Source: Candidatus Staskawiczbacteria bacterium
GTDB lineage: Bacteria > Patescibacteriota > Minisyncoccia > Minisyncoccales > Staskawiczbacteraceae
Direction: 5' to 3'
NCBI GenBank assembly: GCA_903845295.1
Contig: CAIMWV010000030.1
Location: 1-59,271 of the forward strand
DNA: 59,271 nt
Every line of letters starts with the position of its first letter. The stretch's first letter is position 1. Shown piece by piece: positions 8,737-46,765 of the stretch. The notes under the pieces were generated by a model. That model had not been told where the DNA came from. It made no database searches and was given only the letters and a program-made list of their open reading frames with translations. The position numbers and the translations under genes are program-made.

Positions 8737-9494
8737 CTTTAAAATATAAAACAAAGGGATTTGTTTTTAAAAAGAATAATGTAAATGAGTCAGACAGAAT
8801 TTTTTCTGTTTTTACTCATGATTTCGGACGGTTGGATATTTTTTCCAAAGCGATAAGAAAAACTGTTTCTAAGTTAAGGAGCGGAATAGATATTTTTTTT
8901 ATGTCAGAGATAGAATTTATACAAGGTAAAAACAGAAAAACCCTTACAGATACAGCTATAATAGAAAAATTTGATAATATCTGGCAGGATTTAGAAAAGT
9001 TTAAAACTGCCAACAGAATAGGAGAAATTTTAGACAATTTTATAAAAGGCGAAGAAAAAGACGAAGAAATTTTTATATTGATAAGCGAAGTGATGGAAAA
9101 GCTGAATATCCAGAAGCCCTTCAGAGAGACCATAAATCAGCCGATAATTTTTTATTATTTTCTCTGGAATTTTTTTTCGATACAAGGATATCGTTCAGAG
9201 GTCCAAAAATGCGCCGGCTGCCACGAGAAATTAAATCCTTACAATATTTATTTCTCCGGCAAAGAAGGCGGTATTATTTGCGGCAATTGCGCAAAATCAA
9301 AAAAAAACTGTCCTGAGCCTTGCCGAAGGATAAATTCGGATATTGTAAAAATATTAAGGCTTATTCTGTCAAAAGATTGGCAGACATTATCTAAATTAAA
9401 AATTGAGCAATCTTCCCAGAAACTATTGTCAGAAGTTTCAGAAAATGCCATTCATGCATTTTGCCCATCCATAATGCATTATACAATCACTTGA
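8733..9494 (+). CDS. recO: DNA repair protein RecO
   Basis: ESDRIFSVFTHDFG OB-fold start; CAGC...CGNC zinc finger. Confidence 0.92.
   Translation: MTLKYKTKGFVFKKNNVNESDRIFSVFTHDFGRLDIFSKAIRKTVSKLRSGIDIFFMSEIEFIQGKNRKTLTDTAIIEKFDNIWQDLEKFKTANRIGEILDNFIKGEEKDEEIFILISEVMEKLNIQKPFRETINQPIIFYYFLWNFFSIQGYRSEVQKCAGCHEKLNPYNIYFSGKEGGIICGNCAKSKKNCPEPCRRINSDIVKILRLILSKDWQTLSKLKIEQSSQKLLSEVSENAIHAFCPSIMHYTIT
9311..9330 (-). repeat. Palindromic element copy 2 (in recO, reverse orientation; PEPCRR)
   Basis: TCCTGAGCCTTGCCGAAGGA is the reverse complement of TCCTTCGGCAAGGCTCAGGA. Confidence 0.8.
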
Positions 9495-31995: not shown

Positions 31996-33729
31996 TTACT
32001 CCCACGAAGCTTCGATTATTTTTTCCGGGAATTTTTCAGCTATTTTCTTGAAATTATTGCACGATGTCTTATGTAAAACAGCAGCTCTATTCTGCGCAAG
32101 GTATGCATTAACCTTATCTCCCGGCTGAGGACTGCAACACTTTGCAATATGGATAAGTATGCCTTTCTGTCCGGCCAGAAAAATTTGCCCCATATTTCCT
32201 TTCGCGATCTTCAGTTTCTCCTCTTTTCTTTTTTGAGAAGCTTCGGAAATTTCTATAATCTTTTTTCTTATAAAGCCGGGCAGGGGAAATCTGAAGCCGG
32301 ATTTTTCTTCGCCGGTCAGTCTTTTTATGTGAGACCGCGCTAAAGGTGTCTTAACAAATTTTAGCCAATCTTTTGACGGGATTTTGTTTTTGTTTGTTGC
32401 GACTTCCACAACATCCCCGTTTTCTAAAATGTGGTTAAGCTGCACTATTTTGCCGCTTATTTTTGCCGATTCGCAATGGTTTCCGATATCTGAATGCACG
32501 GCGTATGCAAAATCAACGGGAGTCGAATCTTTGGGCAAAACAATGACGTCTCCTTTCGGGGTGAAAGTAAAAACCTTATTTTCAAAGAAATCTATTTTGA
32601 AAGTTTTCCAAAACTCAGGAATATTTTTCATCCATTCAAAATTTTCCCCTTCTTTGATAAGGTCAATTTTTTCCTTATATGACCAGTGGGCGCAGATGCC
32701 GTATTCGGCTTCTTTGTGCATCTCTTCTGTTTTTATCTGGACTTCGGTTATTTCGCCCTCCTGCAAAAAAATAGTGGTATGCAGAGATCTGTAGCCGTTC
32801 GGCTTCGGTTTGGCTATATAATCGTTTATTTCTTCAGAAATCGGCTTGAAGTGCTTGTGTATTATGCCTAAAATCCGGTAACAGCTTTCAACATCAGTGG
32901 TAATTACCCTTAATGCAAGCAGGTCGTGGATTTCGTCAAAATTCATGTTGTGGCGTATAAGCTTTTGATAGGTGCTCCAGTAAGATTTTGCCCGGTAGTT
33001 TATATCCAAAATTTTTACCCTTTCTTTTTTAAAAATTTTTTTAAGCCGCGGGATGAATTTTCTTAGATATTTTTCTCTTTCTTCGTGCTCTCCTTTGATG
33101 TTTTCTTTAAGCCATTTAAATTTATCCGGGAACAGGCATGCGAAAGCCCCGTCTTCGAGGACTCTCCTTATTCCGGACAATCCCAGTCTGTTGGCGATAG
33201 GTACAAAAATCTGCAAGGTTTCAAGGGAATATAATTTTTGCTGGTCTTCGGGCAAACGTTGCAAAAAATTCATTCCATCTAATCTTGAAACAAGCTCCAC
33301 TAAAACCACCCTTAAATCCCCGGACAGCGCCAAAAACATCCTTCTTAAATTCTCAATTTTTTCCCTGGTGAATGTTTTCTTCTCCCTTATGCCGACAGAC
33401 AAGGAGTAGCGGACCCTGCTGAGTTCTGAATTTTTTTCTATTAAACGGCTTATTTCCTTCCCGAATTTTTTTTCAATCTCTTTTGTTTCAACTTTTCTGA
33501 CAAAACCGGGGACATCATCCAATACGTCGTGAAGAAGCCCAAAGGCGATTGTTGTCGGATCCAAGTCCATTTTATCAAGAGCCAAAGCCACCCTCGTTGC
33601 ATGGATAATATAATTTTCCCCGGAAAGCCTGTATCTGTCTTTATAGGCCTGGGTCGCAAATTCAAAAGCCGACTCAATCAGTTTTGGGTCTGAACTTCTT
33701 TTTATTATTTTTTGTATGTCACCGCTCAT
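31996..33729 (-). CDS. rel: RelA/SpoT homolog (HD, synthetase, TGS, ZFD; no ACT domain)
   Basis: LLHD, DLLALRVI, YIAKPKPNGYRSLHTT, EVQIKT..MH..AEYG..AHWSYKE, FTPKGD, KCCSP.PGD. Confidence 0.9.
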   Translation of the reverse strand: MSGDIQKIIKRSSDPKLIESAFEFATQAYKDRYRLSGENYIIHATRVALALDKMDLDPTTIAFGLLHDVLDDVPGFVRKVETKEIEKKFGKEISRLIEKNSELSRVRYSLSVGIREKKTFTREKIENLRRMFLALSGDLRVVLVELVSRLDGMNFLQRLPEDQQKLYSLETLQIFVPIANRLGLSGIRRVLEDGAFACLFPDKFKWLKENIKGEHEEREKYLRKFIPRLKKIFKKERVKILDINYRAKSYWSTYQKLIRHNMNFDEIHDLLALRVITTDVESCYRILGIIHKHFKPISEEINDYIAKPKPNGYRSLHTTIFLQEGEITEVQIKTEEMHKEAEYGICAHWSYKEKIDLIKEGENFEWMKNIPEFWKTFKIDFFENKVFTFTPKGDVIVLPKDSTPVDFAYAVHSDIGNHCESAKISGKIVQLNHILENGDVVEVATNKNKIPSKDWLKFVKTPLARSHIKRLTGEEKSGFRFPLPGFIRKKIIEISEASQKRKEEKLKIAKGNMGQIFLAGQKGILIHIAKCCSPQPGDKVNAYLAQNRAAVLHKTSCNNFKKIAEKFPEKIIEASWE

Positions 33730-35744
33730 CTGATATAATCACATTCTTTGTTAGAACACTTTATTTTTTTGCCCTTTTCTATCAATATAGAATCGCATTT
33801 GGGGCAAAACTCATTTACGGGCTTATCCCATAAGGCAAAATCGCATTTTGGAAAATGGTTGCATCCATAAAATGTTTTTCCTTTTTTTGTCCGCTTCCCG
33901 GTTATCTTTCCTTCTTTGCATTTCGGGCAGGTTATATTCAAAGTATCCGGGTCTCCCTCAATGGATTCTGTATATTTGCATTCCGGGAATTTTGAGCATG
34001 CGTAAAATCTGCCAAATCTTCCAAGGCGTTCAATCAACGGAGCTCCGCACTTCGGGCAGACTTTGTTTGTTTTTTTGGTTAAATCTGTTTTTACTACTTC
34101 TTTATATTTTTCTTCCAGATTTTTGGCAAAAGGATTATAAAAATCTCTGCAGGTTTTTTCCCATGTGTCTTTGCCCTCTGCCACTTCGTCCAATTCTTTT
34201 TCCATTTTTGCCGTAAAATCAATATCAACGATTTCTGGAAAATTTTTCACCAAAACATCATTAACTATTATTCCCATCTCGCTAGGGAAAAATCTTCTCT
34301 GGTCATTTTCAGCAACATAATTCCTTTCTTGTATGGTAGATATGATCGGGGCATAGGTTGACGGCCTGCCGATGCCATGTTTTTCCAAAGTCTTTATCAG
34401 GCTGGCTTCGGTGTATCTTGCCGGGGGTTCGGTAAAATGCTGGAGGGAGTCCAATTTTAAAAGATTTAAAACATCATTTTTTTCTAAATCAGGCAGTTCT
34501 GTTTCTTCAAATTTTGTCGGATAAACTTTCAAAAAACCGTCAAACTTTAACGTCTGGCCGTTTGCCCTGAATGTATAATTACTTGCGTTTATGTCTGCGG
34601 ATACAGAATCAAAGACAGCCAAAGCCATCTGGGAGGCGATAAACCTTTGCCAGATTAATGTATAGAGTTTCAGCTGCCTTGCATCAATTCCTTTTAAAGA
34701 CTCTGGATTTTTGTCTGCATAGGTCGGCCTGATTGCCTCATGGGCTTCTTGGGCTCCGCTGCTCTTTGTTTTGTACTTTACCAATCTGCCTGCCCAGTAA
34801 TTCTGCCCGAATTTTTCTGATATAAGTTTTTTTGCGGAATTTAATGACATCTCCGAGAGGTTCAGTGAATCTGTTCTGTGGTAAGTTATATTTCCTTCTT
34901 CATAAAGCCTTTGGGCCAGAGACATAGTCATTTTTGCAGAAAATTTAAATCTTTGCCAAGCCGCCTGTTGAAGGGTGCTTGTTGTGAACGGGGGTGCGGG
35001 ATATCTTTTCGTTTCTTTTTTTTCTACGGATTCAACAATATAATCTGCATTAGTTAAATCCTGCAGAATTTTGTCTGCCTCGGTTTTATTCTTTATTTCC
35101 AGCTTGTCTAAAGCCTTTCCGTCCTTTTTGACTAAAGATGCGTTAAATTCTTTATCTACTTTTTTCAGCAAAACCTCAATACCCCAATATTCCTGTGCAA
35201 CAAACTTTTCTATTTCCCTTTCTCTCTCAACAATTAATCTCACGGCAACCGACTGCACTCTGCCGGCTGAAAGTCCTTTCGCGACTTTTTTCCATAAAAA
35301 CGGTGATATTTTATAACCTACAATCCTGTCTAAAATTCTTCTGGCCTGTTGGGCATCGACTAAATTCATATCTATGTGCCTAGGCGTTTTTAAAGCATTT
35401 TCAATTGCTGTTTTGGTAATTTCATGGAATACAATTCTCTGCGGATTTTTTAATTTTAAAGCCTCCTGCAAATGCCAGGCAATTGATTCTCCTTCGCGGT
35501 CCTCATCAGTCGCCAGAATTGTATTGTCTGCTTTCGCAGATTCTTTTTTCAGTTCAGACACAACTTTTTTAGCTTTTGTCGGTATGACATATTTTGGCTT
35601 AAAGCCATTTTCGACATCAACGCCAAGCTCCCTTTTCGGCAGATCCCTTACATGTCCAAAAGACGACTTGATAATAAAGTCGTTTCCCAAAAATTTTTGA
35701 ATTGTTTTTGCCTTCGTCGGGCTTTCCACTATTACTAAATCCAT
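33726..35744 (-). CDS. topA: DNA topoisomerase I
   Basis: IVESPTKAK, ATDEDREGE, AGRVQS, ITYHRTDS, three C-terminal zinc ribbons. Confidence 0.97.
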   Translation of the reverse strand: MDLVIVESPTKAKTIQKFLGNDFIIKSSFGHVRDLPKRELGVDVENGFKPKYVIPTKAKKVVSELKKESAKADNTILATDEDREGESIAWHLQEALKLKNPQRIVFHEITKTAIENALKTPRHIDMNLVDAQQARRILDRIVGYKISPFLWKKVAKGLSAGRVQSVAVRLIVEREREIEKFVAQEYWGIEVLLKKVDKEFNASLVKKDGKALDKLEIKNKTEADKILQDLTNADYIVESVEKKETKRYPAPPFTTSTLQQAAWQRFKFSAKMTMSLAQRLYEEGNITYHRTDSLNLSEMSLNSAKKLISEKFGQNYWAGRLVKYKTKSSGAQEAHEAIRPTYADKNPESLKGIDARQLKLYTLIWQRFIASQMALAVFDSVSADINASNYTFRANGQTLKFDGFLKVYPTKFEETELPDLEKNDVLNLLKLDSLQHFTEPPARYTEASLIKTLEKHGIGRPSTYAPIISTIQERNYVAENDQRRFFPSEMGIIVNDVLVKNFPEIVDIDFTAKMEKELDEVAEGKDTWEKTCRDFYNPFAKNLEEKYKEVVKTDLTKKTNKVCPKCGAPLIERLGRFGRFYACSKFPECKYTESIEGDPDTLNITCPKCKEGKITGKRTKKGKTFYGCNHFPKCDFALWDKPVNEFCPKCDSILIEKGKKIKCSNKECDYIR

Positions 35745-35752
35745 AATAAATT

Positions 35753-35794
35753 CTAATTTAATGAATACATATTTGCTCTGAGACCGCGTATTTT
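35753..35794 (-). pseudogene. Diverged duplicate of the last 14 codons of dprA
   Basis: Encodes KIRGLRANMYSLN* versus the dprA end KIRSLRANIYSLN* (35847-35888); 34/42 nt identical. Confidence 0.75.
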
Positions 35795-35846
35795 ATATAG
35801 GAAGGATGCAAGCTCAATAAAATTTTTCGGGCAACGATAAACTATC

Positions 35847-36788
35847 TTAGTTTAATGAGTAGATATTGGCTCTGAGACTTCTTATTTTACCTGAAACCTC
35901 CATTAATGCAAGCGTGCTTGCCACGGCCGATGCGCTTAATTTCGTTTTTTCTATGATTTTATCTACGTGTAATGGCTCATCTTTTAATGCGTCTATAATC
36001 AATTTTTCCTCTAAATTTTCCGCAGAAAATTCGTTCTGGGCAAAATTGAAGGATTGCAACCCCAATTCATTCAGAATATCAGTTGTACCGGTAATTAATT
36101 TAGCGCCATTTTTTATCAGTTTATTCGGGCCCGCGGAGTTTAAAGAATAAATGGGGCCGGGCACGGCAAACAGTTTTTTATTCTGTTTTATTGCATAATC
36201 GGCGGTTATCAACGAGCCGGATTTTTCTTTCGCTTCTATTACTAATACGGCTAAGCTCAGGCCGCTGATTATCCTATTCCGCCTGGGGAAAGAAAATTTA
36301 GATCCCGGCGTGCCTTCGGGCAATTCAGAAATAAGGCATCCGCCGCACTCTATAATCTTTTTGGATAAATCTAAATTTGCCTGCGGATAAATTGATTTTT
36401 CATCTAATCCTGTGCCCAATACAGCGATTGTGCGTTTTCTTTTTTCAACTGCAGCCCCGTGGCTGAATGTATCGATTCCCGGAGCTAATCCCGAAATAAT
36501 CGTAAGCCCTGCGTCAGATAATTCGCCGGATATTTTTGAAGCAACTTGCTGGCCGTACGGCGAGTAACGCCTTGTCCCGACAATCGCGATGCATTTTTCA
36601 TCGGGGTTTGATAAAATTCCTCTATAATATAAAACCTTCGGCGCATCTTTAATTTTTTTCAAATCTTCCGGGTATTCTTTTTCCTCAATTTTTACAATTT
36701 TCACCCCCGCACCAAACGGATGCTGGGTTTTGTTACTCAAAATGTTAAAATTTTTATCCATTATGGTGTGGGGGTTAATTTCTTCCAT
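35847..36788 (-). CDS. dprA: DNA-processing protein DprA
   Basis: AIVGTR, ISGLAPGID..SH, IAVLGTG, FPRRNRIISGLS, EA..KSGSLITA, winged-helix C-terminus. Confidence 0.96.
   Translation of the reverse strand: MEEINPHTIMDKNFNILSNKTQHPFGAGVKIVKIEEKEYPEDLKKIKDAPKVLYYRGILSNPDEKCIAIVGTRRYSPYGQQVASKISGELSDAGLTIISGLAPGIDTFSHGAAVEKRKRTIAVLGTGLDEKSIYPQANLDLSKKIIECGGCLISELPEGTPGSKFSFPRRNRIISGLSLAVLVIEAKEKSGSLITADYAIKQNKKLFAVPGPIYSLNSAGPNKLIKNGAKLITGTTDILNELGLQSFNFAQNEFSAENLEEKLIIDALKDEPLHVDKIIEKTKLSASAVASTLALMEVSGKIRSLRANIYSLN
36702..36776 (-). repeat. 75-nt inverted-repeat element in frame in the dprA N-terminus
   Basis: ACCCCCGCACCA (36703-36714) / TGGTGTGGGGGT (36764-36775); encodes NPHT...FGAGV between MEEI and KIVKIEE. 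Confidence 0.65.
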
Positions 36789-36887
36789 TTGTTTGTTTAT
36801 AATAACATAAAACTTTCAAACTCTTGAATTCTCCGGATTTTAAAGTAGAATCTAAACCAGTAACTTGACATTGGGAGGGGGTGCAAG

Positions 36888-37403
36888 ATGAAAATGTCGG
36901 TTAAGTGTGCTTTGGGAAAAAATACGGTTGTCATTTCGAAAGAGGAAATCGGGAAAATCCTCTTTCCCAAAGGAAGAATGCTCCTTTTGGACCAAGTGAT
37001 AATCACAGATGGTTTTGCTGTCGGAGAATTTACAGTCCCAATTGAAAACTGCGAAGGCCATGAGCCTATACCCAATATGCCGGTGATGCGGGGAGTCGAA
37101 ATCCCTGAAATGGCTTTTCAACTGCTTGGCATTTTTCTTTCCCAGGATCCCGGATTGTTTAATGAATTAAAGGGTAAGGTTTGCGTTGCCAGAGAAATAA
37201 CCAGCGCAAAGTTCATGGGATTTATCCGCCCCGGCGACAAGCTGGTTTTGAAGACTAAGACGGATATCGGCATTGATAATGTTGGTAAGACTTCAAGAAT
37301 TGAAAGCAGTGTAATGGTTGCCAGGGTTGGTGGCGAAAAAAAGTGCATAATCTCTTCTGTTGCCATTGTGGCTTTCAATCCGGATTCGATAAAGGCTGTC
37401 TAA
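36888..37403 (+). CDS. FabZ/FabA-like hotdog-fold dehydratase
   Basis: MLLLDQV, EGH.P..PVMRGVEIPEMAFQ, A.F.G.I.PGD; strong SD GGGAGGGGG. Confidence 0.75.
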   Translation: MKMSVKCALGKNTVVISKEEIGKILFPKGRMLLLDQVIITDGFAVGEFTVPIENCEGHEPIPNMPVMRGVEIPEMAFQLLGIFLSQDPGLFNELKGKVCVAREITSAKFMGFIRPGDKLVLKTKTDIGIDNVGKTSRIESSVMVARVGGEKKCIISSVAIVAFNPDSIKAV

Positions 37404-37435
37404 AAGATCAGCCTTTTTTCTTTTTATGGAAAATT

Positions 37436-39421
37436 CTAATAGGATTTAAATTTTTCAATTGCTTCCGAAATCATCTGGCTGTATAAATTCAATCCTATTT
37501 TATTTATGGCACCCGACTGTTCTTTGCCTAAGATATTACCGGCTCCTCTTAGTTCCAAATCCCTGATTGCAATTCTGTATCCGGCTCCCAATTCCTGCGC
37601 GTCTTTTAATGCGTCGAGGCGCTCTTTAGCCAAAGGCGTTAAATTTTTTGAGTCGTACATGAAATAAGCAAAACTTTTTGTTCCGGACCTGCCGACTCTG
37701 CCCCTTATCTGGTGCGCCTGGCTAAGCCCGAGGCGCGTGGAGTCTTCTATTATAATCGTATTTACGTTCGGCAGATCCAATCCGTTTTCAATAATTGTTG
37801 TGGCAACCAGAACATTTATTTTTTCCTTTTGGAATTCGTCCATTATTTTTATTAATTTTTTTTCTGGCATCCTGCCATGGATCAAACCAATCCTTGCCTT
37901 TTTGCAGAGATTCTTCAATTCTTCTGATTTCGCTTCAATGCTCTGAACCCTATTATGTAAAAAATAAACCTGCCCCTTTCTTTTCAGTTCAGAATCGATT
38001 ATTTTTTTAACAGATTTTTCGTTATATTGGAGAACTTCTGTTTTTATGGCCTGTCTGCCCATCGGGGGAGTTTGCATCAAGCTTATATTTTTTAAAGAAG
38101 AAAGCGCCAAATAAATTGTGCGCGGTATTGGTGTGGCCGACAAGCTGAGAACATCCAAACTGGTTTTTAACTGCCTGAGTTTTTCTTTTTGTTTTACGCC
38201 AAATTTTTGTTCGTCGTCAATAATCAGAAGCTGCAGGTTTCTGAATTCTACATCTTTTGACAAAAGCCGGTGTGTGCCGATCAAAATGTCTATTTTACCC
38301 TCTTTTAAATCTTCGATAATTTTTTTCTGCTCTAACTTTGTCTGCAACCCTGAAAGCAAAGCAATTTTTACGGGCAGCTTTTCAAATCTTTTTTTGAAAG
38401 AATTAAAATGCTGGTTTGCTAAAATCGTAGTCGGGCATATCAAAGCCGTCTGCCTGTTGTTCAAGGAAGCCAATAAGGCCGTTCTCATCGCCACTTCTGT
38501 TTTGCCGAAACCGACGTCGCCGCAGACGATCCTGTCCATAGGTTTTGTTTTTTGCAGGTCATTTTTAATGTCTTCTATAGCCTGAATCTGGTCCGGGGTT
38601 TCCTGGAAAGCAAAACCGGACCTGAACTGCGCTTCCAATTCTTTATCTTCTATATAAGGGGTTCTTTCGGTGATTTCCTTTTGGGCATATAACTGCAGAA
38701 GTTCCTTGGCTAACTTTTCAACGTCTTCTTTTATTTTTCCTTTTGTTTTCTGCCACAAAGAAGATCCCAGCCGTGAAATTTTCGGATCCTGAAACCCAAC
38801 GTATCTCGACAGTTTTCTTTCAAGACCCAGGGGAACATATAATTTGTCGGCTTGTGCATATTCTAAAACATAATAACTTTGGAATTCGGGCGACCCAGGG
38901 AGCGCGGAAGTCTGAAATTTTTCTATTCCTATAAATTTTCCGATGCCATGGTCTAAATGGACCAGATAATCTCCCGGTTTTAATCCTTTCAGCTCTGAAA
39001 ACAGTTTCTGTGATTTCAGTTTCTTTTTTAAAATCTCCCTGGATTTTTTTTCATCATCAACTTTAATGTCCAGTATTTTTATTTCATCCACTTCATTCCC
39101 TAAAAAATCCAAACGCACCGCATTTGCTAAATTGATGGGGAAAATATCAATTATCCCTCCGCGCTGGGAAAATTCGCCGGGCTCTGAAACCTTAAACACC
39201 CTTTCATATCCCATTTCATCTAGTTTTCTCAGAAATTGCGAAAATTGGAAGCTATGGTCTTTTTCTAAAAAAATTATATTGTCTTCAAAAAAATTCTGTG
39301 AGTGCCTGGCGCTTAATATCTCATGCAGGTTTTCTTGAAACCACAAAAACCCCTTATCTAAAAAATAAGGGGTGATGCTGACTATTAAAAGTTGGTTAAT
39401 ATCTTTATCTGTTGTATTCAT
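37436..39421 (-). CDS. mfd: Short Mfd-like (TRCF) translocase
   Basis: UvrB-like GGIIDIF, RID VHLDHGIG, CGDVGFGKT, SATPIPRT, QIRGRVGR, TRG motif DLELRGAGNILG.EQSG; ends right after TRG. Confidence 0.88.
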   Translation of the reverse strand: MNTTDKDINQLLIVSITPYFLDKGFLWFQENLHEILSARHSQNFFEDNIIFLEKDHSFQFSQFLRKLDEMGYERVFKVSEPGEFSQRGGIIDIFPINLANAVRLDFLGNEVDEIKILDIKVDDEKKSREILKKKLKSQKLFSELKGLKPGDYLVHLDHGIGKFIGIEKFQTSALPGSPEFQSYYVLEYAQADKLYVPLGLERKLSRYVGFQDPKISRLGSSLWQKTKGKIKEDVEKLAKELLQLYAQKEITERTPYIEDKELEAQFRSGFAFQETPDQIQAIEDIKNDLQKTKPMDRIVCGDVGFGKTEVAMRTALLASLNNRQTALICPTTILANQHFNSFKKRFEKLPVKIALLSGLQTKLEQKKIIEDLKEGKIDILIGTHRLLSKDVEFRNLQLLIIDDEQKFGVKQKEKLRQLKTSLDVLSLSATPIPRTIYLALSSLKNISLMQTPPMGRQAIKTEVLQYNEKSVKKIIDSELKRKGQVYFLHNRVQSIEAKSEELKNLCKKARIGLIHGRMPEKKLIKIMDEFQKEKINVLVATTIIENGLDLPNVNTIIIEDSTRLGLSQAHQIRGRVGRSGTKSFAYFMYDSKNLTPLAKERLDALKDAQELGAGYRIAIRDLELRGAGNILGKEQSGAINKIGLNLYSQMISEAIEKFKSY

Positions 39422-39968
39422 TCATGGTTTTATCTAATCCTGCTTTTACGAAGAAATCAAGGGCATCAGTTATTTTTTTTATTGTTTCATCTATTACTTT
39501 TTGTTCTTCCTGTGAAAAGTTCTTCAATACAACTTTCATTGCATTCACGTCTTTTTGCCCGGCAACACCTATCCTGAACCTCATCAATCCGTCATTTCCG
39601 ATACTTTTGATTATTGATTCAACTCCTTTATGGCCGGCTGAACCCCTTTCTTTTATAATTTTTATTTTTCCGACCGGCACATCGACATCATCATGGACTA
39701 TCACCAAATCTGACATTTGCGCTTTGGTGTTAGACATCAGCTGCTTTACTGATTTGCCGGATTCATTCATGAATGTTTGGGGTTTTACCAAAACAACGGT
39801 TTTGTCTCCGAGAATGTGTTCTGAAACGAGAGCGTTTGATTTTTTTTGCAATTTAAATTCAGGAAAATTGTTTTTTTCCGCAAACGCATCGATTGCGATA
39901 AATCCGACATTATGGCGGGTATTTTTATATTGTTCACCCGGGTTTCCCAAACCCACAATAATTATCAT
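39405..39968 (-). CDS. pth: Peptidyl-tRNA hydrolase
   Basis: VGLGNPG, TRHNVG, KPQTFMN.SG, HDDVD, AGHKG, RFRIG. Confidence 0.96.
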   Translation of the reverse strand: MIIIVGLGNPGEQYKNTRHNVGFIAIDAFAEKNNFPEFKLQKKSNALVSEHILGDKTVVLVKPQTFMNESGKSVKQLMSNTKAQMSDLVIVHDDVDVPVGKIKIIKERGSAGHKGVESIIKSIGNDGLMRFRIGVAGQKDVNAMKVVLKNFSQEEQKVIDETIKKITDALDFFVKAGLDKTMNEYNR

Positions 39969-40060
39969 TTTGTTTTTCAGTTAATTTGTTGTATTTTAAT
40001 ATAATATACTATTTTTTACTTATTTTCCACATATACGCCGGTGAGAGGAAAAATAGTGGC

Positions 40061-40089
40061 TTGACAATTAATATTTTAGCGTATAATAT
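40061..40089 (+). promoter_or_regulatory. Sigma70-like promoter of a two-gene GC-rich unit
   Basis: TTGACA (40061) with TATAAT (15-nt spacer) or TAATAT (17-nt spacer). Confidence 0.6.
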
Positions 40090-40233
40090 AAGTATTTAGT
40101 TCAAGATATCGCACATTAACAAGATAATATAAATTTGCGTGATTTATGCGCAGAAGATTAAACCCGAAAAATGTGATCTCGGTGCGTGGCCGGGATCGAG
40201 AGGGGGAAGGGAAAAAGTAATAGGGAGGTAGGG

Positions 40234-40545
40234 ATGCCAAACCTTTGGCGTAAGTTGTCTCAAGGGCAGAAAGAGTTCCTCTTAAAGGAGGGATTCGATC
40301 CAAGCAGGAGGGGCTCTGGCGTCAGAATCAAGGCGCTGGCAAATCGTTTCAACACCACGTTCGAAAGCAAGTGGAGGCCTCACGAAGTGAGGCAGATGCT
40401 TGCAGAAGTTACACGTAGCGGCAGTAACGGTAACGACAACGGGAACGGCGACAACAACGGCAACGGGAATGGGAGGGTCAAGAGTAAAAGCAAGAGCAGG
40501 TTTTACACCCGCGCCCACCAGTTGGTTTCCGGGGGTGCGCGATGA
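40234..40545 (+). CDS. Hypothetical basic protein with Gly/Asn repeat linker
   Basis: SD GGGAGGT before ATG at 40234; NGNDNGNGDNNGNGNG tract; ATGA overlap with the next gene. Confidence 0.7.
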   Translation: MPNLWRKLSQGQKEFLLKEGFDPSRRGSGVRIKALANRFNTTFESKWRPHEVRQMLAEVTRSGSNGNDNGNGDNNGNGNGRVKSKSKSRFYTRAHQLVSGGAR

Positions 40546-41090
40546 TTAGTACAGAGACTACAGCAGGATCCGGCGAGGCTCACACCATTCATCAAAGAAT
40601 GGCTTTCGCGGAAGAACTGGTGGAGATCGTAAGGAGTGCCGAATGTCCGATAGGACTCGGGCATACGGTCGATGATGAGGCATTGCCTGTTCTTCTGGCC
40701 TGCCTCAAGGATATTTTGGGAGTTGTACCGGTACGCGATATTGTATATTACCGGAGTCCTGAGGATGAGCGCGGCCAAGATTGCCTCTGGTCGCTCCATA
40801 CTAACCGTGGGATGGTGCTGGTGCTCCAGACTTCAAAAGGGCTGAAGACGAGCGTGGAAAACCGTGTGGATATCGAAGATTTTCCTATGATCGACGCTCG
40901 CCGGAAACTTCTGAAGATTCTCGGAGCAGATCAGAAATTCTCTGCTAAGAAAATCATCGGCCGGCGCGTTACCCTGGTCGGCGATTATAGAGGGATCAAC
41001 CATCTTGTCTTCGTTGCCTTGGAGCATTTCTTCCAGGAGAGGGGGGCCAGGGAGGTCGAGTTCGTCAGCCTTAAGCTCAAAACGGCTTAA
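40542..41090 (+). CDS. Hypothetical protein, possible degenerate type I phosphoribosyltransferase fold
   Basis: GRRVTLVGDY...QERGAREVEFVSL resembles the PRTase core GKRVLLVDD...GAKEV. Confidence 0.55.
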   Translation: MISTETTAGSGEAHTIHQRMAFAEELVEIVRSAECPIGLGHTVDDEALPVLLACLKDILGVVPVRDIVYYRSPEDERGQDCLWSLHTNRGMVLVLQTSKGLKTSVENRVDIEDFPMIDARRKLLKILGADQKFSAKKIIGRRVTLVGDYRGINHLVFVALEHFFQERGAREVEFVSLKLKTA

Positions 41091-41140
41091 CTCCTCAAGA
41101 TAGCTTGCGCAATAACGCGTATAACTAGCGCAGATACTTT

Positions 41141-41180
41141 GCGGGATTGTTTCTCATGTGAAACAATCCCGCCTTTTTTT
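41141..41180 (+). terminator. Intrinsic terminator
   Basis: GCGGGATTGTTTC-TCATGT-GAAACAATCCCGC then C and T7. Confidence 0.9.
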
Positions 41181-41256
41181 GCTTTTGACAGGGGGTTGCA
41201 ATTGCTTTAAAAATATGATAAAATATTAAAATTAACCCGATTAATTTAAAACTTTT

Positions 41257-41865
41257 ATGGATAGCGATAATAAAGAAGAGAATTTAAAAAAAGAAGAAAT
41301 ATCCAGAACAGGAATTAGAAAATATATACCTTTTGTTTTGGAGCTGATTAAAATAGCCATTATAGCTTTCGTGATAGTGGCGCCTATCCGTTATTTTCTA
41401 TTCCAGCCCTTTATCGTGAGCGGAGCATCCATGGCTCCAAATTTTGCCACAGGCGATTATTTGATTGTAGATGAAATTTCTTACAGGTTTTCCAGTCCGC
41501 AAAGAGGAGATGTAGTCGTTTTTAACACAAGTTTTATACCGGGATATTATGGCCAGCGTTTTATCAAAAGAGTCATCGGGCTTCCCGGCGAAACAGTTGA
41601 TATAAAAAACGGACAAGTTAAAATAATTAAAGACGGCAAGGTAACAATTTTAGACGAAAAATATTTACCCGATAATTTGAAAACATACGGGGATGTGAGT
41701 ACCACCTTAAAGGCAGATCAATATTTTGTTTTGGGAGATAACAGAGAATATTCTTATGATTCGAGAATGTGGGGAGTTGTCCCGAGAACCGATATAATCG
41801 GCAAAGCATCTTTAAGAGTTCTGCCCATAAAATCTTTATCAGAAATAACCCGTCCAGCTTATTAA
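41257..41865 (+). CDS. lepB: Signal peptidase I
   Basis: VSGASMAP, FIKRVIGLPGE, LGDNREYSYDSRMWG. Confidence 0.95.
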   Translation: MDSDNKEENLKKEEISRTGIRKYIPFVLELIKIAIIAFVIVAPIRYFLFQPFIVSGASMAPNFATGDYLIVDEISYRFSSPQRGDVVVFNTSFIPGYYGQRFIKRVIGLPGETVDIKNGQVKIIKDGKVTILDEKYLPDNLKTYGDVSTTLKADQYFVLGDNREYSYDSRMWGVVPRTDIIGKASLRVLPIKSLSEITRPAY

Positions 41866-41887
41866 ATTTTAAATCAAAAATTATCGC

Positions 41888-43171
41888 ATGAGCAAAATTA
41901 AATACCAAACTTTGACCGGAATGCACGATGTACTGCCGCAGGACCAGGTTTACTTTAAAAAAATTCAGAAAGCGGTTGAATCTGTAGCCGGCTATTATAG
42001 TTTTGAAAAAATTGAAACTCCTATTCTGGAGTTTGCCGAGGTTTTCCAAAAGGCAGTTGGAGATGACACGGATATTGTCGGCAAAGAAATGTATACATTC
42101 AGGACAAAGGGAGGAGATATGGTTTGTTTAAGGCCGGAGGGGACAGCTGCTGTTATGAGAAGTTATTTAGAACATGGGATGCACAATCTGCCTCAGCCAA
42201 TAAAACTTTGGTATATAGGTCCATTTTTCAGATATGAAAGGCCCCAGGCAGGACGCTTCCGCCAATTCCATCAGTTTGGATTTGAAATAATAGGAGAGGG
42301 CAGCCCTTCCATCGACGGTCAAATTATCCAGATGAGTTACGATGTTTTAAAGGAGTTGGGATTTAAAAATCTGACAATTGAAGTAAATTCCATAGGCGAC
42401 TCAGAGTGCAGGCCATATGCCAAAAAAATCCTGACAAGTTATTTCAAATCCAGGCGTTCGTCTTTATGCTCTGACTGCCAGAGAAGGCTGAAAGAAAATC
42501 CATTGAGAATTTTAGACTGCAAAGAAGAAAAATGCCAGAGAGTAAAAGCATCAGCTCCGCAGATAATCGACCATCTTTGCGAAAAATGCCACTTGCATTT
42601 TAAGGAGGTCCTGGAATTTTTAGACGAGTTGGAATTGCCGTACACATTAAACCCCTATTTAGTCCGCGGATTAGATTATTACACAAAAACAGTTTTTGAA
42701 ATTGTTGAAACAACAGAGGACGGGAAATCTTTGGGCACATTGATCGGTGGCGGAAGATATGACAATCTGTCGAAAATGCTCGGTGGCAGAGATACGCCAG
42801 GTTGCGGGTCTGCAGCCGGCATAGAGAGGATATCCAGTCTGATGAAAACCCGGGGAATGAAACTCGGCCCGAAAGTTGAGGAGCCAAAAATATTTTTAGC
42901 TCAATTGGGACAGTTGGCAAAAAGAAAAAGTATGAAATTATTTGAAGAGTTGAGGGCAGCTAAAATCCCTGTGGCAGAATCATTCTCAAAAGATTCTTTA
43001 AAAGCCCAATTAAGAACCGCCAATAAATTAAATATAAGATGGGTTTTGATTTTTGGGCAGAAAGAAGCATTGGAAGATTTTATTACTTTAAGGGATATGG
43101 ACACAGGAATCCAAAAAGAAATAAAACTTGACAAGGTCGTACAAGAAATGAAAGATAAAATTAAGAAGTAA
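41888..43171 (+). CDS. hisS: Histidine--tRNA ligase
   Basis: LRPEGTA, FRYERPQAGRFRQFHQ, LVRGLDYYT, GGGRYD. Confidence 0.97.
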   Translation: MSKIKYQTLTGMHDVLPQDQVYFKKIQKAVESVAGYYSFEKIETPILEFAEVFQKAVGDDTDIVGKEMYTFRTKGGDMVCLRPEGTAAVMRSYLEHGMHNLPQPIKLWYIGPFFRYERPQAGRFRQFHQFGFEIIGEGSPSIDGQIIQMSYDVLKELGFKNLTIEVNSIGDSECRPYAKKILTSYFKSRRSSLCSDCQRRLKENPLRILDCKEEKCQRVKASAPQIIDHLCEKCHLHFKEVLEFLDELELPYTLNPYLVRGLDYYTKTVFEIVETTEDGKSLGTLIGGGRYDNLSKMLGGRDTPGCGSAAGIERISSLMKTRGMKLGPKVEEPKIFLAQLGQLAKRKSMKLFEELRAAKIPVAESFSKDSLKAQLRTANKLNIRWVLIFGQKEALEDFITLRDMDTGIQKEIKLDKVVQEMKDKIKK

Positions 43172-43200
43172 ATTTAAACTTAAAATTAAAAATTATCGCT

Positions 43201-43419
43201 ATGCCAATACAAGTCACAAAAAAAGAAAAAGAGACTTCCCAGAATTTAGGGCACCGTTTTACAAAAACTGTACGCCAATCAGGCATCCTGCTCCAAATAA
43301 GGAAAGGGAGGTTTTTTAAAAAAGCAAAATCTGATTTAGCTAATAAAAGGTCTGCTTTGAGGAGGGTTAAGGTAAGGGCAGAGAAAAGAATAGCAGAAAA
43401 ATTAGCAAAACCCAAATAA
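43201..43419 (+). CDS. rpsU: 30S ribosomal protein bS21-like
   Basis: 72 aa, basic; I.V.KKEKE....L..RF...V..SG.L pattern; rpsU-yqeY synteny. Confidence 0.7.
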   Translation: MPIQVTKKEKETSQNLGHRFTKTVRQSGILLQIRKGRFFKKAKSDLANKRSALRRVKVRAEKRIAEKLAKPK

Positions 43420-43422
43420 ACT

Positions 43423-43923
43423 ATGTTAAAGCAACAAATCCAAGTTGCCGCTACTAATGCATTGAAGGCAAGCGACCAATTTTTGGTTGGAACTTTGCGT
43501 ATGTTATTAGCATCTATTTTAACAAAAGAAAAGGATAAGAGATATAAAATTTCCAAACAAAATCCGGATTTGAACGAAGACGGTTTGGTTAAAGAATCCC
43601 AATTGTCAGACGAGGAAATCATTGAAGTTATTTCTTCTGAGATTAAAAAAAGAAAGGATGCTATAGTTTTGTATGAGCAAGGCAACAGGCCGGAGCTGGC
43701 GGACAGAGAAAAAAAAGAAATAGAAATTTTAAAAAAGTATTTGCCAGAACAGCTGTCAGAAGAAGAAGTTAAGAAGATTATAAAAAAAGCTATCGCAAAA
43801 ACAGGCGCCAAAGAAATGAAAGATATGGGAAAAGTTATGGCTGAAGTTTCTCCAAAGGCAAAAGGCAAAGCAGACAACAGCGAAATCTCAAAAATTGTAA
43901 AAGAATTATTATCTCAAAAGTAA
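43423..43923 (+). CDS. yqeY: GatB/YqeY domain protein
   Basis: LRMLLA, KKRKDAI..Y..GNR.EL...E..EI..L..YLPEQL, KDMGKVM. Confidence 0.92.
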   Translation: MLKQQIQVAATNALKASDQFLVGTLRMLLASILTKEKDKRYKISKQNPDLNEDGLVKESQLSDEEIIEVISSEIKKRKDAIVLYEQGNRPELADREKKEIEILKKYLPEQLSEEEVKKIIKKAIAKTGAKEMKDMGKVMAEVSPKAKGKADNSEISKIVKELLSQK

Positions 43924-43928
43924 ATTTC

Positions 43929-43954
43929 AAAAAACCGCTGATCAGCGGTTTTTT
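43929..43954. terminator. Palindromic terminator after yqeY
   Basis: AAAAAACCGCTGATCAGCGGTTTTTT is a perfect palindrome. Confidence 0.8.
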
Positions 43955-43971
43955 GTTTAATTTTAAGTTTG

Positions 43972-43999
43972 TTGACAAAAGAAAATAAAACACTAATAT
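43972..43999 (+). promoter_or_regulatory. Sigma70-like promoter
   Basis: TTGACA-16 nt-TAATAT; predicted start about 44005-44008. Confidence 0.65.
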
Positions 44000-44008
44000 A
44001 AAAACCGT

Positions 44009-44193
44009 GCTCTTTGATTTAAGCCTTAAGTTGAGAAATGCCCTACAAACGGTTTTGATTTTAATTTTCGGGCGAGAATTTGATAGAGCGAGGAGGTTTG
44101 CCCTTGTGGTAAGCCGACGAGTTATAGCAAATTCGGAGCCAAAATTAAAATTAAAGAGTTTAAGGTTATTTCGCAATTTAAGGCTGTAAGAGC
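44009..44193 (+). ncRNA. Candidate structured RNA, 185-nt imperfect rod (6S-like size)
   Basis: End-to-end pairing with at least six G.U pairs that work only on the + strand; starts immediately after the promoter. Confidence 0.55.
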
Positions 44194-44234
44194 TTTCCGC
44201 AGGCTTCCAAAACCCAAGAAAAAGGAGGGGATTT

Positions 44235-45524
44235 ATGAAGATCCTAGTTGTGGGGTCTGGCGCCCGAGAACACATTTTGTGCGATACATTTGTGAAACTA
44301 GGGCATCAAGTGCTAGCGGCGCCGGGCAGAGAAAGTCTGTGGCAGGGGGTGGACAGCGTATCTGTCCAGGCCATAGATATTCCAGGAGTGACAAATTGGG
44401 CCAAAGCCAATCGGCCCAATTTGGTCGTAGTCGGGCCGGAAAACCCGCTGGTGGATGGATTGGCTGACCGGCTCAGGCAGGAGAAGATCCCGGTTTTCGG
44501 GCCATCAGCAAGAGCTGCTTTCCTCAGCGAGGGTTCAAAGGCCGAATCGAAGTCGCTGATGAGGGCGGCAAAGGTCCCAACATCCGCTTTCCGCGTCTAT
44601 TCTGATTATGATGCAGCAAAGGCCTGCATTATGTCTAACCCCGTCCCGATCGTGGTGAAAGCCAGCGGACTGGCCGCAGGCAAGGGAGCTTACGTGTGCA
44701 AGACCAGAGAAGAGGCTCTCGAAGCGCTAGATCAGGCTATGGTCAAGAAAGTGTATGGCAAGGCCGGGGACCAGGTCGTCATTGAGCAGTTTGTTGCAGG
44801 GCCAGAGGTTTCAGTGATGGCGATTTGTGACGGGGAAACCTGCCTCATGTTGCCGTCTTCCCGCGACCACAAGCAAGCCTTCGACGGCAATCAGGGAAAG
44901 ATGACCGGCGGCATGGGTGCGGTTTCGCCGGCGCCCGGAGTTACTCCTGAGATGATGGAGCAAGCCAAAGACAGGATTATCCTTCCGTTTTTGGCAGAGC
45001 TGAAAAAAGCAGGCGCTCCATTTGTCGGGTGTCTCTATGGGGGATTGAAAATTTCCCCCAGTGGACTCCTGATGACCCTGGAGTTTAACTGCCGATTCGG
45101 CGATCCCGAAGTTTTGGCAGTTCTGCGGCGTCTTGCCCCAAGCGTTGATTTGGCGCAGCTTTTGCTGCAATGCGCCAACGGCAGGCTGGATCCCATATGG
45201 GAAACGCGGCAAAGCGGCCTTTGGCTTCCTGAATGCGCCATTGATGTAGTGCTGGCAACCAAGGGCTATCCCGATCAGGACAAAGCCGATTACGGCAAGG
45301 TTATATCTGGGATTGGCGAAGCCCATCGAATTCCAGGAGTAGCAGTCTTTGACGCGGGCTCCAAACTGGCTGAGAATACAACCCGTGTTAATACTTCGGG
45401 CCGCGTTCTCAACGTGACGGCCATTGGCCCTACTTTGGAGAAAGCCCGTGAAACTGTTTACCGGGCTGTCGGGTGCATTAACTTCCAAGGCATGCAATTC
45501 CGTACAGACATCGGCCTTTGGTGA
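44235..45524 (+). CDS. purD: Phosphoribosylamine--glycine ligase
   Basis: ILVVGSGAREH, VVGPE.PL, VKASGLAAGKG, DHKQAFDG..G..TGGMG, EFNCRFGDPE, GRVL.V; SD AAGGAGG. Confidence 0.95.
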   Translation: MKILVVGSGAREHILCDTFVKLGHQVLAAPGRESLWQGVDSVSVQAIDIPGVTNWAKANRPNLVVVGPENPLVDGLADRLRQEKIPVFGPSARAAFLSEGSKAESKSLMRAAKVPTSAFRVYSDYDAAKACIMSNPVPIVVKASGLAAGKGAYVCKTREEALEALDQAMVKKVYGKAGDQVVIEQFVAGPEVSVMAICDGETCLMLPSSRDHKQAFDGNQGKMTGGMGAVSPAPGVTPEMMEQAKDRIILPFLAELKKAGAPFVGCLYGGLKISPSGLLMTLEFNCRFGDPEVLAVLRRLAPSVDLAQLLLQCANGRLDPIWETRQSGLWLPECAIDVVLATKGYPDQDKADYGKVISGIGEAHRIPGVAVFDAGSKLAENTTRVNTSGRVLNVTAIGPTLEKARETVYRAVGCINFQGMQFRTDIGLW

Positions 45525-45551
45525 ACGACCTCTGATGAACGTTCGTTGTAG

Positions 45552-45587
45552 GGCAGAGAAATTGTTGTTTCTCTGCCTCTTTTTTTT
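45552..45587 (+). terminator. Intrinsic terminator after purD
   Basis: GGCAGAGAAA-TTGTTG-TTTCTCTGCC then a T-rich run. Confidence 0.85.
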
Positions 45588-45695
45588 CTTGCACCCTTCA
45601 TCTCGCACCCTTCATATAGAAATTATATAAAAGGCTGTATAAAGATTTTATATAAGGCTGTGTATTTATTTTTAATAATGGGTTAAAATAGAATA

Positions 45696-46352
45696 ATGGC
45701 AAAAAGCAGAAAAGCTGTTACAAAAACAAGAAGAACACAATTTGTTTTAATGGTTGTAATTATTCTGCTGATTTTATCGGCTGGGTTTTTTGCGTACAGC
45801 CATTTTTTTTCGAGCAAACCCGACAACTATCTTATTGAAAACAAATATTACGGTTTTAAATTACAAACGCCGAAAAACTGGATTGCAGAAGAAAAGACAA
45901 TTTATTCAGAAGATAATATAACTCAAATCCTGGCACAATGTAAAAATGATGAATCATCCGGAGCACCTGTTCATGAAATCGGAAGATTCAGATTTGAAGA
46001 CAAAAAATACCCCGATGGTCTAGGAGATTCGGGATCTTTTCCTGCCGGGCTTCCAGGCGGAGTTATTTTAGAAATAGCAGTTAATTGCGTTCCTGACAGC
46101 ATAAAAAGCAAAATCGGAAATTATTCAGGCAATCTTAAAATAGCCGGCGAACAAGCATTTGAAGAATTTTTGAATTTGCCCGGATTCGGGAAGACAGCGT
46201 CTTTTTATTTTTTGCATAATGGTTTTCAATATAAAATCAACGAATATGTTTATATTTCACCTAGCGACAAAGTTAAAAATGAAGACAAAATAAGGGAAAA
46301 TTATAATGCTGAATTTGACAAAATAACTTCCAGCTTCAAATTCGTGAAATGA
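45696..46352 (+). CDS. Hypothetical membrane-anchored exported protein
   Basis: Basic N-terminus, one TM, YGFKLQTPKNW... FDKITSSFKF (PsbP-like pattern). Confidence 0.7.
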   Translation: MAKSRKAVTKTRRTQFVLMVVIILLILSAGFFAYSHFFSSKPDNYLIENKYYGFKLQTPKNWIAEEKTIYSEDNITQILAQCKNDESSGAPVHEIGRFRFEDKKYPDGLGDSGSFPAGLPGGVILEIAVNCVPDSIKSKIGNYSGNLKIAGEQAFEEFLNLPGFGKTASFYFLHNGFQYKINEYVYISPSDKVKNEDKIRENYNAEFDKITSSFKFVK

Positions 46353-46765
46353 CAATAGAAATAAATAACCTTACAAACTTTGCTGTGGATAAAAAAGTTT
46401 TTTCCACAGTTGCAAAAAAAGTATTAAAAGGCGAAAATAGAGAAACAGAAGCAGTATCCTTGGCCTTTGTTGATAAAGAAGAGATAAGGAAGGTTAATAA
46501 AAAATTCCGGAAAAAAAACAGAGCGACAGATGTTTTGTCTTTTTTGCTTAATGAAAAACAATGTTTGGGGGAAATAATTATTTGTCCTGAAATTGTAAAA
46601 AAGAATGCAAAGGAATACGGAGTTTCTGCAAAAGAAGAAATGTTGAAGGTGTTTGTCCACGGAATTTTGCATTTATGCGGATATGACCATGAAAAATCAA
46701 AAAAAGAAGCAGAGGAAATGGAAAAAAAACAAGAAAAATACTTAAGTCACATAAATTTAAAATAA
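46349..46765 (+). CDS. ybeY: rRNA maturation RNase YbeY
   Basis: ATDVLSF, LGEIIICP, HGILHLCGYDH. Confidence 0.95.
   Translation: MTIEINNLTNFAVDKKVFSTVAKKVLKGENRETEAVSLAFVDKEEIRKVNKKFRKKNRATDVLSFLLNEKQCLGEIIICPEIVKKNAKEYGVSAKEEMLKVFVHGILHLCGYDHEKSKKEAEEMEKKQEKYLSHINLK

Follow-up and report, generated by a model that had tools for sequence, protein, structure and literature searches.

Two ends of dprA precede topA

The DNA analysed here, hereafter the window, is a 59,271-nt stretch of contig CAIMWV010000030.1 from an assembly of Candidatus Staskawiczbacteria bacterium, and our subject is the junction of its dprA and topA genes, where a small repeat insert lies between two copies of the last codons of dprA (Table 1). 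The genome of the window (G000; 779 kb, 35 contigs, 95% complete) was compared with other assemblies, which carry G-numbers of their own. Both genes were defined as open reading frames (ORFs) and are recognized by Pfam, dprA through PF02481 (E 3e-75) and PF17782, the DprA winged-helix domain, and topA through PF01131, Toprim and Zn ribbons. The frame of dprA ends in the upstream copy, the live tail, which reads AAA ATA AGA AGT CTC AGA GCC AAT ATC TAC TCA TTA AAC TAA on the minus strand. The downstream copy, the orphan tail, reads AAA ATA CGC GGT CTC AGA GCA AAT ATG TAT TCA TTA AAT TAG on the same strand. This duplicate was reported in an initial annotation made from the letters of the window, and re-reading the sequence bore that description out: seven codons differ between the tails, five of them synonymously (AGA/CGC, GCC/GCA, TAC/TAT, AAC/AAT and the stop codons TAA/TAG) and two non-synonymously (S/G and I/M). 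The further statement that the orphan ends 8 nt before topA and has no start codon also holds, save for an internal ATG near its end.

The two tails agree at 34 of 42 bases (81%) and are spaced 94 nt apart, and a repeat search of the window returned them as a 53-nt gapless repeat of 77% identity. Their longest exact match is 10 nt, and the identical block next to the repeat core described below measures only 6 nt. From live to orphan, the base substitutions are A/C, A/C, A/G, C/A, C/G, C/T, C/T and A/G; they do not fall at adenines, which rules out a variable repeat/template repeat (VR/TR) pair of a diversity-generating retroelement. A match of 34/42 was reached by 1.5e-5 of the 117 million 42-mer pairs that lie 50-200 nt apart in G000, and the expected number of such matches for one given 42-mer is 0.002. 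The duplicate dprA end is a genuine feature of this junction. Its frame is open upstream as far as the dprA stop, and ATG, GTG and TTG are absent from it except for the internal ATG, five codons before the end. Because the orphan is in the +1 frame relative to dprA, plain readthrough from dprA cannot reach it, and the dprA frame itself meets a TGA after 10 codons; readthrough or frameshifting from dprA into the orphan was rejected on these grounds.

Table 1. Features of the dprA-topA junction, and the second member of the repeat family, in the window
Feature	Position	Strand	Description
dprA coding sequence	35847..36788	-	313 aa, intact; ends in the upstream (live) tail; ORF, translation and Pfam
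Live tail (T_A)	35847..35888	-	final 13 dprA codons and TAA; contiguous with the dprA frame
Linker, locus-specific part	35826..35846	-	gatagtttatcgttgcccgaa; homologous to the G007 linker at the same site
Repeat extension, 13 nt	35813..35825	-	AAATTTTATTGAG; flanks the core in other copies of one subfamily
Core remnant	35795..35812	-	CTTGCATCCTTCCTATAT, first 18 nt of the core; nhmmer E 1e-6, model positions 2-35
Promoter-like match	35790..35817	-	TTGAGC-16-TAAAAT; spans extension, core remnant and first orphan bases; consensus match only
Orphan tail (T_B)	35753..35794	-	13 codons and TAG; displaced resident dprA end; no usable start codon
Ancestral dprA-topA spacer	35745..35752	-	8 nt; from overlap to 21 nt in element-free relatives
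topA coding sequence	33726..35744	-	672 aa; ATG at 35744; ORF and Pfam
Second family member	45587..45643	+	complete core at 45602-45638 beside a partial second core, nested or tandem halves

The insert belongs to a 37-nt repeat family

The 52 nt that separate the dprA tails contain a decayed member of a genome-wide repeat family, which had been overlooked before. The initial annotation had offered the scar of an excised element as one explanation of the duplicate; this is not sustained, as the decayed element is still present between the copies. The insert is non-coding, measures 52 nt in G000 and 72 nt at the same site in G007, and holds neither an ORF nor a mobility gene. Over their whole length and with the element extension included, the linkers of G000 (34 nt) and G007 (35 nt) agree at 28 of 37 alignment columns (76%), which beats all 200 shuffles, and similarity of the dprA linker to the sequence after the orphan is not significant (P = 0.12). 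The 13-nt extension recurs identically at G000:C35:1754-1766 and near-identically at G022:C24. Relative to the complete copy that G007 carries at this site, the core remnant has lost about 19 nt of its 3' half, including GAAGGCTGT.

The complete core is 37 nt long, with the consensus CTTGCACCCTTC-ATATAAAAAATATATA-GAAGGCTGT and ends that read CTTGCA and GGCTGT, and about 37 copies of it occur in the 779 kb of G000 (nhmmer E < 1e-3). A core pattern has 24 exact matches in G000 versus 2 chance-like ones across 120 further genomes from the order, a set that takes in two more genera of the family. As far as found, the repeat is confined to this Candidatus Staskawiczbacteria genus. Under a stricter pattern there are 20 matches in G000 and 0-6 in each of 25 other species of the genus, and the family has therefore expanded in the G000 lineage. 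Copies sit between genes or at gene ends, in mixed orientation relative to the genes (12 co-directional, 22 opposed). Some ten of them are nested within another copy, in its AT-rich middle and with borders that fit the 37 nt exactly, which argues for mobility of the repeat, and these nested copies were inserted without any duplication. The only inverted repeat of the core is an internal CCTTC/GAAGG, and its fold is weak (-2.5 kcal/mol, z = -0.8). Literature on repeat elements of Patescibacteria, and on homology-facilitated illegitimate recombination with duplication, yielded no description of the family, and an Rfam search of positions 35000-46500 gave nothing at E <= 1, apart from three chance-level hits elsewhere. 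The second family member in the window falls between ORFs of 429 aa and 218 aa, with no gene-end duplication.

Two regulatory roles for the core were considered. Service as a promoter (TTGCAC-17-TATARA) was rejected as its main role, given that its orientation ignores the genes and that the window site is no better than shuffles. A ribosome-binding site on the reverse strand (GAAGGGTG ahead of ATG) was likewise rejected, as G000 shows no Shine-Dalgarno signal. Indeed, the 25 nt upstream of 528 long-ORF starts in G000 are rich in A (45-55% at -6 to -2) and not enriched in G, and the genome appears to use no Shine-Dalgarno sites. At the dprA-topA junction the promoter-like match scores 9/12, with 1 site found versus 1.1 expected in shuffles, and is not significant alone; to judge from its consensus it could drive topA. 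Checks of promoter, orientation, Shine-Dalgarno, fold and Rfam gave no evidence of a role of the duplicate for dprA or topA.

The same layout recurs at other gene ends

A junction search of G000 turned up a second site that shares the spacer, where a gene start is duplicated on the other strand. Across the family, layout was tested by aligning the two flanks of each core, 160 nt on the near side and the 100 nt that follow, the cutoff being the 99th percentile of a cross-locus null. By this test 11-12 of the 37 copies in G000 exceed the cutoff, and a stricter codon-aware pass adds two. The order is common to them all: gene, live end, a linker of 7-60 nt, core and orphan end. The gene is always on the CTTGCA side of the core, and the orphan begins 0-3 nt after GGCTGT, with the sole exception of the weakest-scoring copy, C10:9462, whose repeat starts about 7 nt further on. 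Where the gene faces the core its stop-codon end is duplicated, as for dprA, rplW, a polA-like 5'-3' exonuclease gene and the gene before miaB. Where it faces away, the start-codon end is duplicated and the orphan forms a short upstream ORF. The same layout was found at 8 of 25 further copies in relatives, and about 20 sites besides dprA, across 9 assemblies, display it. The duplications span 20-58 nt, the tails at loci other than dprA are 61-92% identical, and the block next to GGCTGT that is identical in both tails measures 6-36 nt across loci.

Two of these sites have features of their own. At G041:C12 ~66500-66700 (L071) the duplication crosses the stop codon and a 27-nt spacer, up to the ATG of the next gene, and the left copy reads ATG TAG. 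At G000:C11 ~9330-9380 (L031) the stretch from orphan tail to miaB holds a clean terminator-like hairpin, made up of gacggcttgaaaaagccgtc and an ensuing T run; element-free relatives, whose two genes lie 2-5 nt apart, do not have it.

The initial annotation had tied the event to the role of dprA in loading incoming DNA for recombination, a link that is not supported.

Empty, filled and amplified sites in relatives

The dprA-topA junction was compared in close relatives, as had been proposed, and four empty sites with one tail and a filled site in G007 were found. In G018, G022, G023 and G015 the single tail is followed by topA within 21 nt or overlapping, and when element-free relatives are aligned to the window, the alignments continue from topA across the orphan copy. 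In G007 the insert is the same, its linker is homologous and its core complete, and it is present as 3 units of 114-nt period (G007:C4 ~33790-34150, L016). Its middle tails are chimeras, with a left part of orphan type and a right part of live type, which is a signature of unequal crossing-over. Provided that the stop is read through, the dprA frame in this array is open across both linker and core. G007 has a second array at G007:C3:37988-38147 (L062), which consists of 2 units of 112 nt.

Single-copy sites are equally evident elsewhere. Between rplW and rplB more than 15 relatives are empty, reading TAA-c-ATG, and among relatives only G021 is filled. None of the 12 relatives examined at the polA-like locus has the insert. 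At the miaB-side locus the insert is present in G003 and, as two units, in G007, at least 7 relatives are empty, and an unrelated 2-kb insert is found in others. The filled state is discordant with topA relatedness, in that the dprA site is empty in the nearest relatives, G018 and G022, and filled in G007, which is more distant. Between species, the linkers of the miaB-side and rplW insertions cannot be aligned, and the miaB-side orphan starts at the same codon in three species. The adjacency of dprA and topA is itself variable in the genus: among 23 relatives for which the region upstream of topA was fetched, only 8 have dprA beside topA, and in the remaining ones the dprA C-terminus was not found within ~0.8-1.5 kb upstream of topA.

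The downstream tail resembles the resident gene end

Which of the two dprA tails is the old one can be judged from position and from kinship. The downstream copy is contiguous with the ancestral spacer and topA and is nearer to element-free tails, scoring 0.82, 0.78, 0.77 and 0.72 against those of G021, G018, G022 and G023, as compared with 0.74, 0.69, 0.72 and 0.64 for the live tail; by both measures it is the displaced resident tail of dprA. The live tail is nearest to G007, with which it has the codons GCC, AAC and TAA in common. Similar relationships are seen at other loci. For example, the live tails of C35:37964 and its G021 counterpart share signature codons that the orphans lack. On the miaB side, the orphan has the same last four triplets as the live tails of G021 and of G020, which is the closest relative at that locus; the last 4 codons of the live tail equal those of the G013 live tail, and both copies carry the native type of the identical proximal block. 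The orphan at the polA-like locus shares 84% identity with the live tail of G006, and the distal part of the live tail has no match among the sampled relatives.

Part of the first interpretation, that a resident dprA was displaced by a divergent incoming allele, is therefore retained, in that the downstream copy is the resident tail. The other part, a simple replacement of the dprA allele, is not, because the same layout occurs at rplW, the polA-like gene, the gene before miaB and about eight others, always beside the 37-nt repeat. Such a replacement would combine homology on one side with an illegitimate join on the other, the repeat being a bystander in the imported flank. It would account for a native-like orphan and for a live tail nearer to the distant G007. 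It would also fit the last third of dprA, which in G000 is equidistant (0.67-0.71) from all relatives, with G018 and G022 at 0.84 to each other, while in topA G000 groups with G018 and G022 at 0.84. The join, however, coincides with the exact repeat end at 12 loci in G000 and 8 in relatives, and a repeat at which the join is always made is not a bystander; moreover, the 3' half of dprA is more diverged in other distant pairs too. A 2x2 test, chosen post hoc, gave P of about 0.02. The proposed comparison of dprA and topA trees, whose branch supports are low, provides only a weak hint of a chimeric dprA. On balance we consider plain allele replacement highly improbable.

Live and orphan ends differ mainly at synonymous sites

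A comparison of live with orphan ends at 12 loci of G000, comprising 132 aligned codons, counts 50 codons with a synonymous difference and 13 with a non-synonymous one. Under a null in which the orphan drifts freely and the live end accepts silent changes only, about 39% of differences should be synonymous. The observed share is 79% (P = 7e-11, or P = 3e-10 without dprA), in agreement with the suggestion of the initial annotation that both tails were once translated. The same annotation had reasoned that random rather than synonymous divergence in a relative sharing the duplicate would speak against it; in G007, which shares it, 5 of 5 differences are synonymous. Orphans compared with one another between species also differ at synonymous positions only, 6 of 6 at rplW and 3 of 3 at C35:37964 versus G021. 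Similarly, the G003 tails at the miaB-side locus both carry a lineage-specific Asp, yet six third positions differ between them.

The differences are also unevenly placed. They are skewed away from the core (permutation P = 1e-4), with a sharp rise past the identical block, and the divergence of the distal codons is at about the level of the most distant species pairs in the genus; in this the ends resemble a pair of working alleles, not a working end and its decaying copy. At 4-fold sites identity is 0.40-0.50, while the G000/G007 and G000/G021 linkers are 76% identical. Translation of the orphan through a small ORF that begins in the linker or core was considered and rejected as a general explanation: an in-frame upstream start codon exists in only 2 of 6 stop-type cases, and in G007. 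At dprA in G000 the 19-nt core deletion shifts the frame of such an ORF.

These data also speak to whether the dprA duplicate might be an artefact, be it chance similarity, misjoined strain variants or a local tandem duplication that has drifted. In favour of an artefact, the genome is a metagenome bin of 35 contigs. Against this, the 0.002 expected matches leave little to chance, a longest exact match of 10 nt is not long enough to lead a k-mer assembler astray, the layout is seen again at this site in the independent assembly G007 and at the roughly 20 other sites, and orphan drift does not yield 79% synonymous differences. An artefact is extremely unlikely.

Probable origin by insertion with target duplication

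We think it probable that a small repeat insert duplicated the dprA end and that the tails were later shaped by recombination. Ancestrally, the dprA stop would have stood a few bases ahead of the topA start. The repeat would then have entered 14 codons before the dprA stop, its GGCTGT side joined directly to the resident tail, while on the other side a second copy of the tail with a linker of about 21 nt kept dprA whole. The same event may have taken place at 12 or more gene ends in G000, involving stop codons or, in the opposite orientation, start codons. Later the tails would have recombined with each other, unequal crossing-over would have produced the three units of G007, and the core in G000 would have lost 19 nt.

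For the synonymous pattern, we infer that both copies spent their history as working gene ends and that most differences are synonymous for that reason. Most likely, filled and empty alleles exchange by homologous recombination, within and between lineages of naturally transformable bacteria, so that the few codons beside the linker travel with the insert and the orphan is either a recently live tail or is regularly overwritten by one. Where an orphan exchanges with element-free live tails, the codons beside the linker would be shielded, there being too little homology beyond them. Such exchange would produce the polarity, the sharp boundary and the protein-perfect orphans, and it requires that filled and empty alleles coexist. 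The patchy distribution of inserts, which does not follow topA relatedness, we count as exchange between lineages. [quoted passage not shown]

Insertion with long target duplication has precedent. It was described by Nobusato et al. (2000) and is taken up by Furuta, Abe and Kobayashi (2010; PMC2853133). According to the latter paper, the insert has no transposase or integrase of its own and has on either side a direct repeat of over 30 bp, of which an element-free relative has one copy; the repeats often overlap the 3' end of a gene, the species are mostly naturally competent, amplification is possible and the mechanism is left unexplained (PMC2853133). The cases given there are restriction-modification genes of several kb with repeats 93-100% identical (PMC2853133). 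Compared with what is described there, the dprA insert is alike in having 42-nt tails on both sides and a single tail in G018, G022, G023 and G015, in the single-copy empty sites at three other loci, and in carrying no transposase, integrase or other mobility gene. It departs from those cases in being a non-coding repeat of 37-70 nt, present in dozens of copies, with one exact insert end, and in having tails that are 81% identical at dprA and 61-92% elsewhere, diverged at synonymous sites. The inserts constitute a genus-specific family of mini-inserts that duplicate gene ends, a kind of rearrangement already known yet unexplained. The G041 duplication that crosses a gene border, the independent recurrence of insertions and the lack of mobility genes all favour birth by long target duplication.

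Several observations weigh against this account. If the linker were made by target duplication, it might be a decayed copy of the sequence after the orphan; no such copy is detectable at 10 of 11 G000 loci, P = 0.05 being reached at only 1 of 11, and that origin of the linker was rejected. Beyond their first 8-13 nt the linkers do not recur elsewhere. Birth by long target duplication is thus at odds both with linkers that are not copies of local sequence and with repeats that are not near-identical. An identical block followed by sharp distal divergence is predicted by no simple model without extra local gene conversion or crossover. The miaB-side and rplW insertions look independent, on the evidence of their linkers, rather than like the spread of one allele, and for loci filled only in G000 a donor lineage of the live tail was not found among 25 congeners. 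The dprA locus alone offers small numbers, with 8 differing bases. No enzyme for the repeat was identified: G000 has no match to PF01797, the Y1 (IS200/RAYT-type) transposase, the RAYT-like genes of relatives are not flanked by cores, and the small GIY-YIG genes of G000 lie kilobases from any core. Finally, a strong hairpin is unsupported by the fold, which makes 'hairpin element' an unsafe label. PF01797 was found in 14 of 26 congeners, and the 4 loci checked are without cores; with no adjacency to cores found, RAYT and GIY-YIG genes were rejected as the mobilising enzyme.

The remnant of a site-specific integrative element would offer a different origin, with the two tails as attL and attR of a lost island or as the flanks of a gene-less unit. 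Integrative elements at the 3' ends of tRNA or protein genes restore their target, and their gene-less remnants are known as cis-mobilizable elements (CIMEs); each such element works with a single recombinase at a single target, and both of its junctions carry an identity block. The inserts studied here resemble these elements and CIMEs in that the gene end occurs twice, that the live copy is supplied on the element side and that units accrete in tandem, as in G007, and the identical block at one insert end together with direct repeats of gene ends agrees with such a remnant. They differ in having many targets, a dozen of them different, for one tiny shared 37-nt core. The identical block at dprA is just 6 nt, and the nested copies show no duplication. 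No integrase or recombinase stands beside the copies in the ORF contexts listed, among which no dedicated integrase (PF00589) search was made. A remnant of this kind is very unlikely.

Comparison with homing elements and other repeats

Besides insertion with long target duplication, the closest known cases are the WHO homing elements at the yeast FBA1 gene (Coughlan et al. 2020; PMC7282813). A feature of these elements is that each codes for its own driving nuclease; they have just one target, and the gene fragments they leave start at the cleavage site and need not stay open (PMC7282813). Common to them and to the dprA-type inserts are a live gene with a diverged end, hence a chimera, an old end kept as a downstream fragment, and arrays from repeated events; the dprA-type inserts differ in having no coding capacity, many targets and orphans that are protein-perfect. 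By analogy, a nuclease encoded elsewhere could cut an element-free gene end, and repair could copy in the insert along with a rewritten, cut-resistant tail, leaving the old tail behind as an orphan. The 50-70 nt units themselves, having no genes, would ride on that nuclease. In keeping with this are the chimeric live gene with its orphan 3' fragment and the G007 arrays, differences that are synonymous and concentrated in one part of the tail, and signature codons that live tails of different species share and orphans do not have. Both allele types occur as live tails elsewhere, linkers diverge less (24%) than 4-fold sites (50-60%), and small GIY-YIG genes are present in G000. A nuclease gene, however, is absent in or beside any copy, and the orphan, which retains the entire tail including the part identical to the live one, should be cuttable. 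In addition, to act on a dozen unrelated targets would take either as many specificities or a very relaxed enzyme, the distal codons diverge at, not above, the ordinary level between species, and the discordance of 5' and 3' parts in dprA is weak. We regard break-and-replace homing as unlikely. In a bolder version, which we put forward tentatively and hold to be doubtful, the 50-70 nt units would be a selfish, gene-less bacterial counterpart of WHO-type homing elements, invading the last or first 10-20 codons of essential genes, each with a synonymously rewritten protective end, spreading by transformation from one species of ultra-small bacteria to another and driven in trans by a nuclease or nickase acting at the GGCTGT end.

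The core may also be set beside short bacterial repeats. Repetitive extragenic palindromic (REP) sequences and REPINs (PMC3733652) bear a GTAG or CGTC tag and have a cognate REP-associated tyrosine transposase (RAYT), whose gene usually has the repeats on its flanks. Like them (REPs measure 20-40 nt), the core is short and multi-copy, with nesting copies; it lies between genes or at gene ends and may be an imperfect palindrome. Unlike them, it has no GTAG or CGTC tag, its hairpin is weak and a RAYT gene is absent in G000, and REPs are not reported to duplicate gene ends. In contrast to miniature inverted-repeat transposable elements (MITEs), the core lacks terminal inverted repeats and a short target duplication of fixed length, its duplications being 20-58 nt or, in nested copies, none.

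Should the insertion of small repeats with duplication of the gene end, as we favour it, prove general, tiny non-coding inserts would be able to enter the ends of essential genes, such as those for ribosomal protein L23, dprA and the polA-like gene, and do no damage, since the gene receives a new copy of the end that was broken. Orphan ends would likewise form a record of gene flow, their protein-perfect state pointing to frequent exchange of short tracts, both inside species and across them, in bacteria that cannot be cultured, and existing metagenomes could reveal the frequency and tract lengths of recombination in Patescibacteria. With 37 copies in 779 kb, the family is an abundant one in which to study insertion with long target duplication, unexplained since 2000. 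For annotation, such orphan ends should be taken neither for pseudogenes of a second gene copy nor for assembly errors.

Other small inserts at the same junctions

Inserts of other kinds were met at two of the junctions described above. In G021:C53 (L014) a 650-nt insert with a 167-aa ORF lies between dprA and topA, where the tail is not duplicated; it is bracketed by two repeats of about 45 nt that contain TTT(C/T)GCACCTGC(G/A)AAA. Between rplW and rplB in G022, G018 and G010 (L037, L038 and L039) there are other hairpin-type repeats, doubled in one case, which are unrelated to the core and come with no gene-end duplication; the rplW-rplB junction has thus been hit repeatedly by small inserts.

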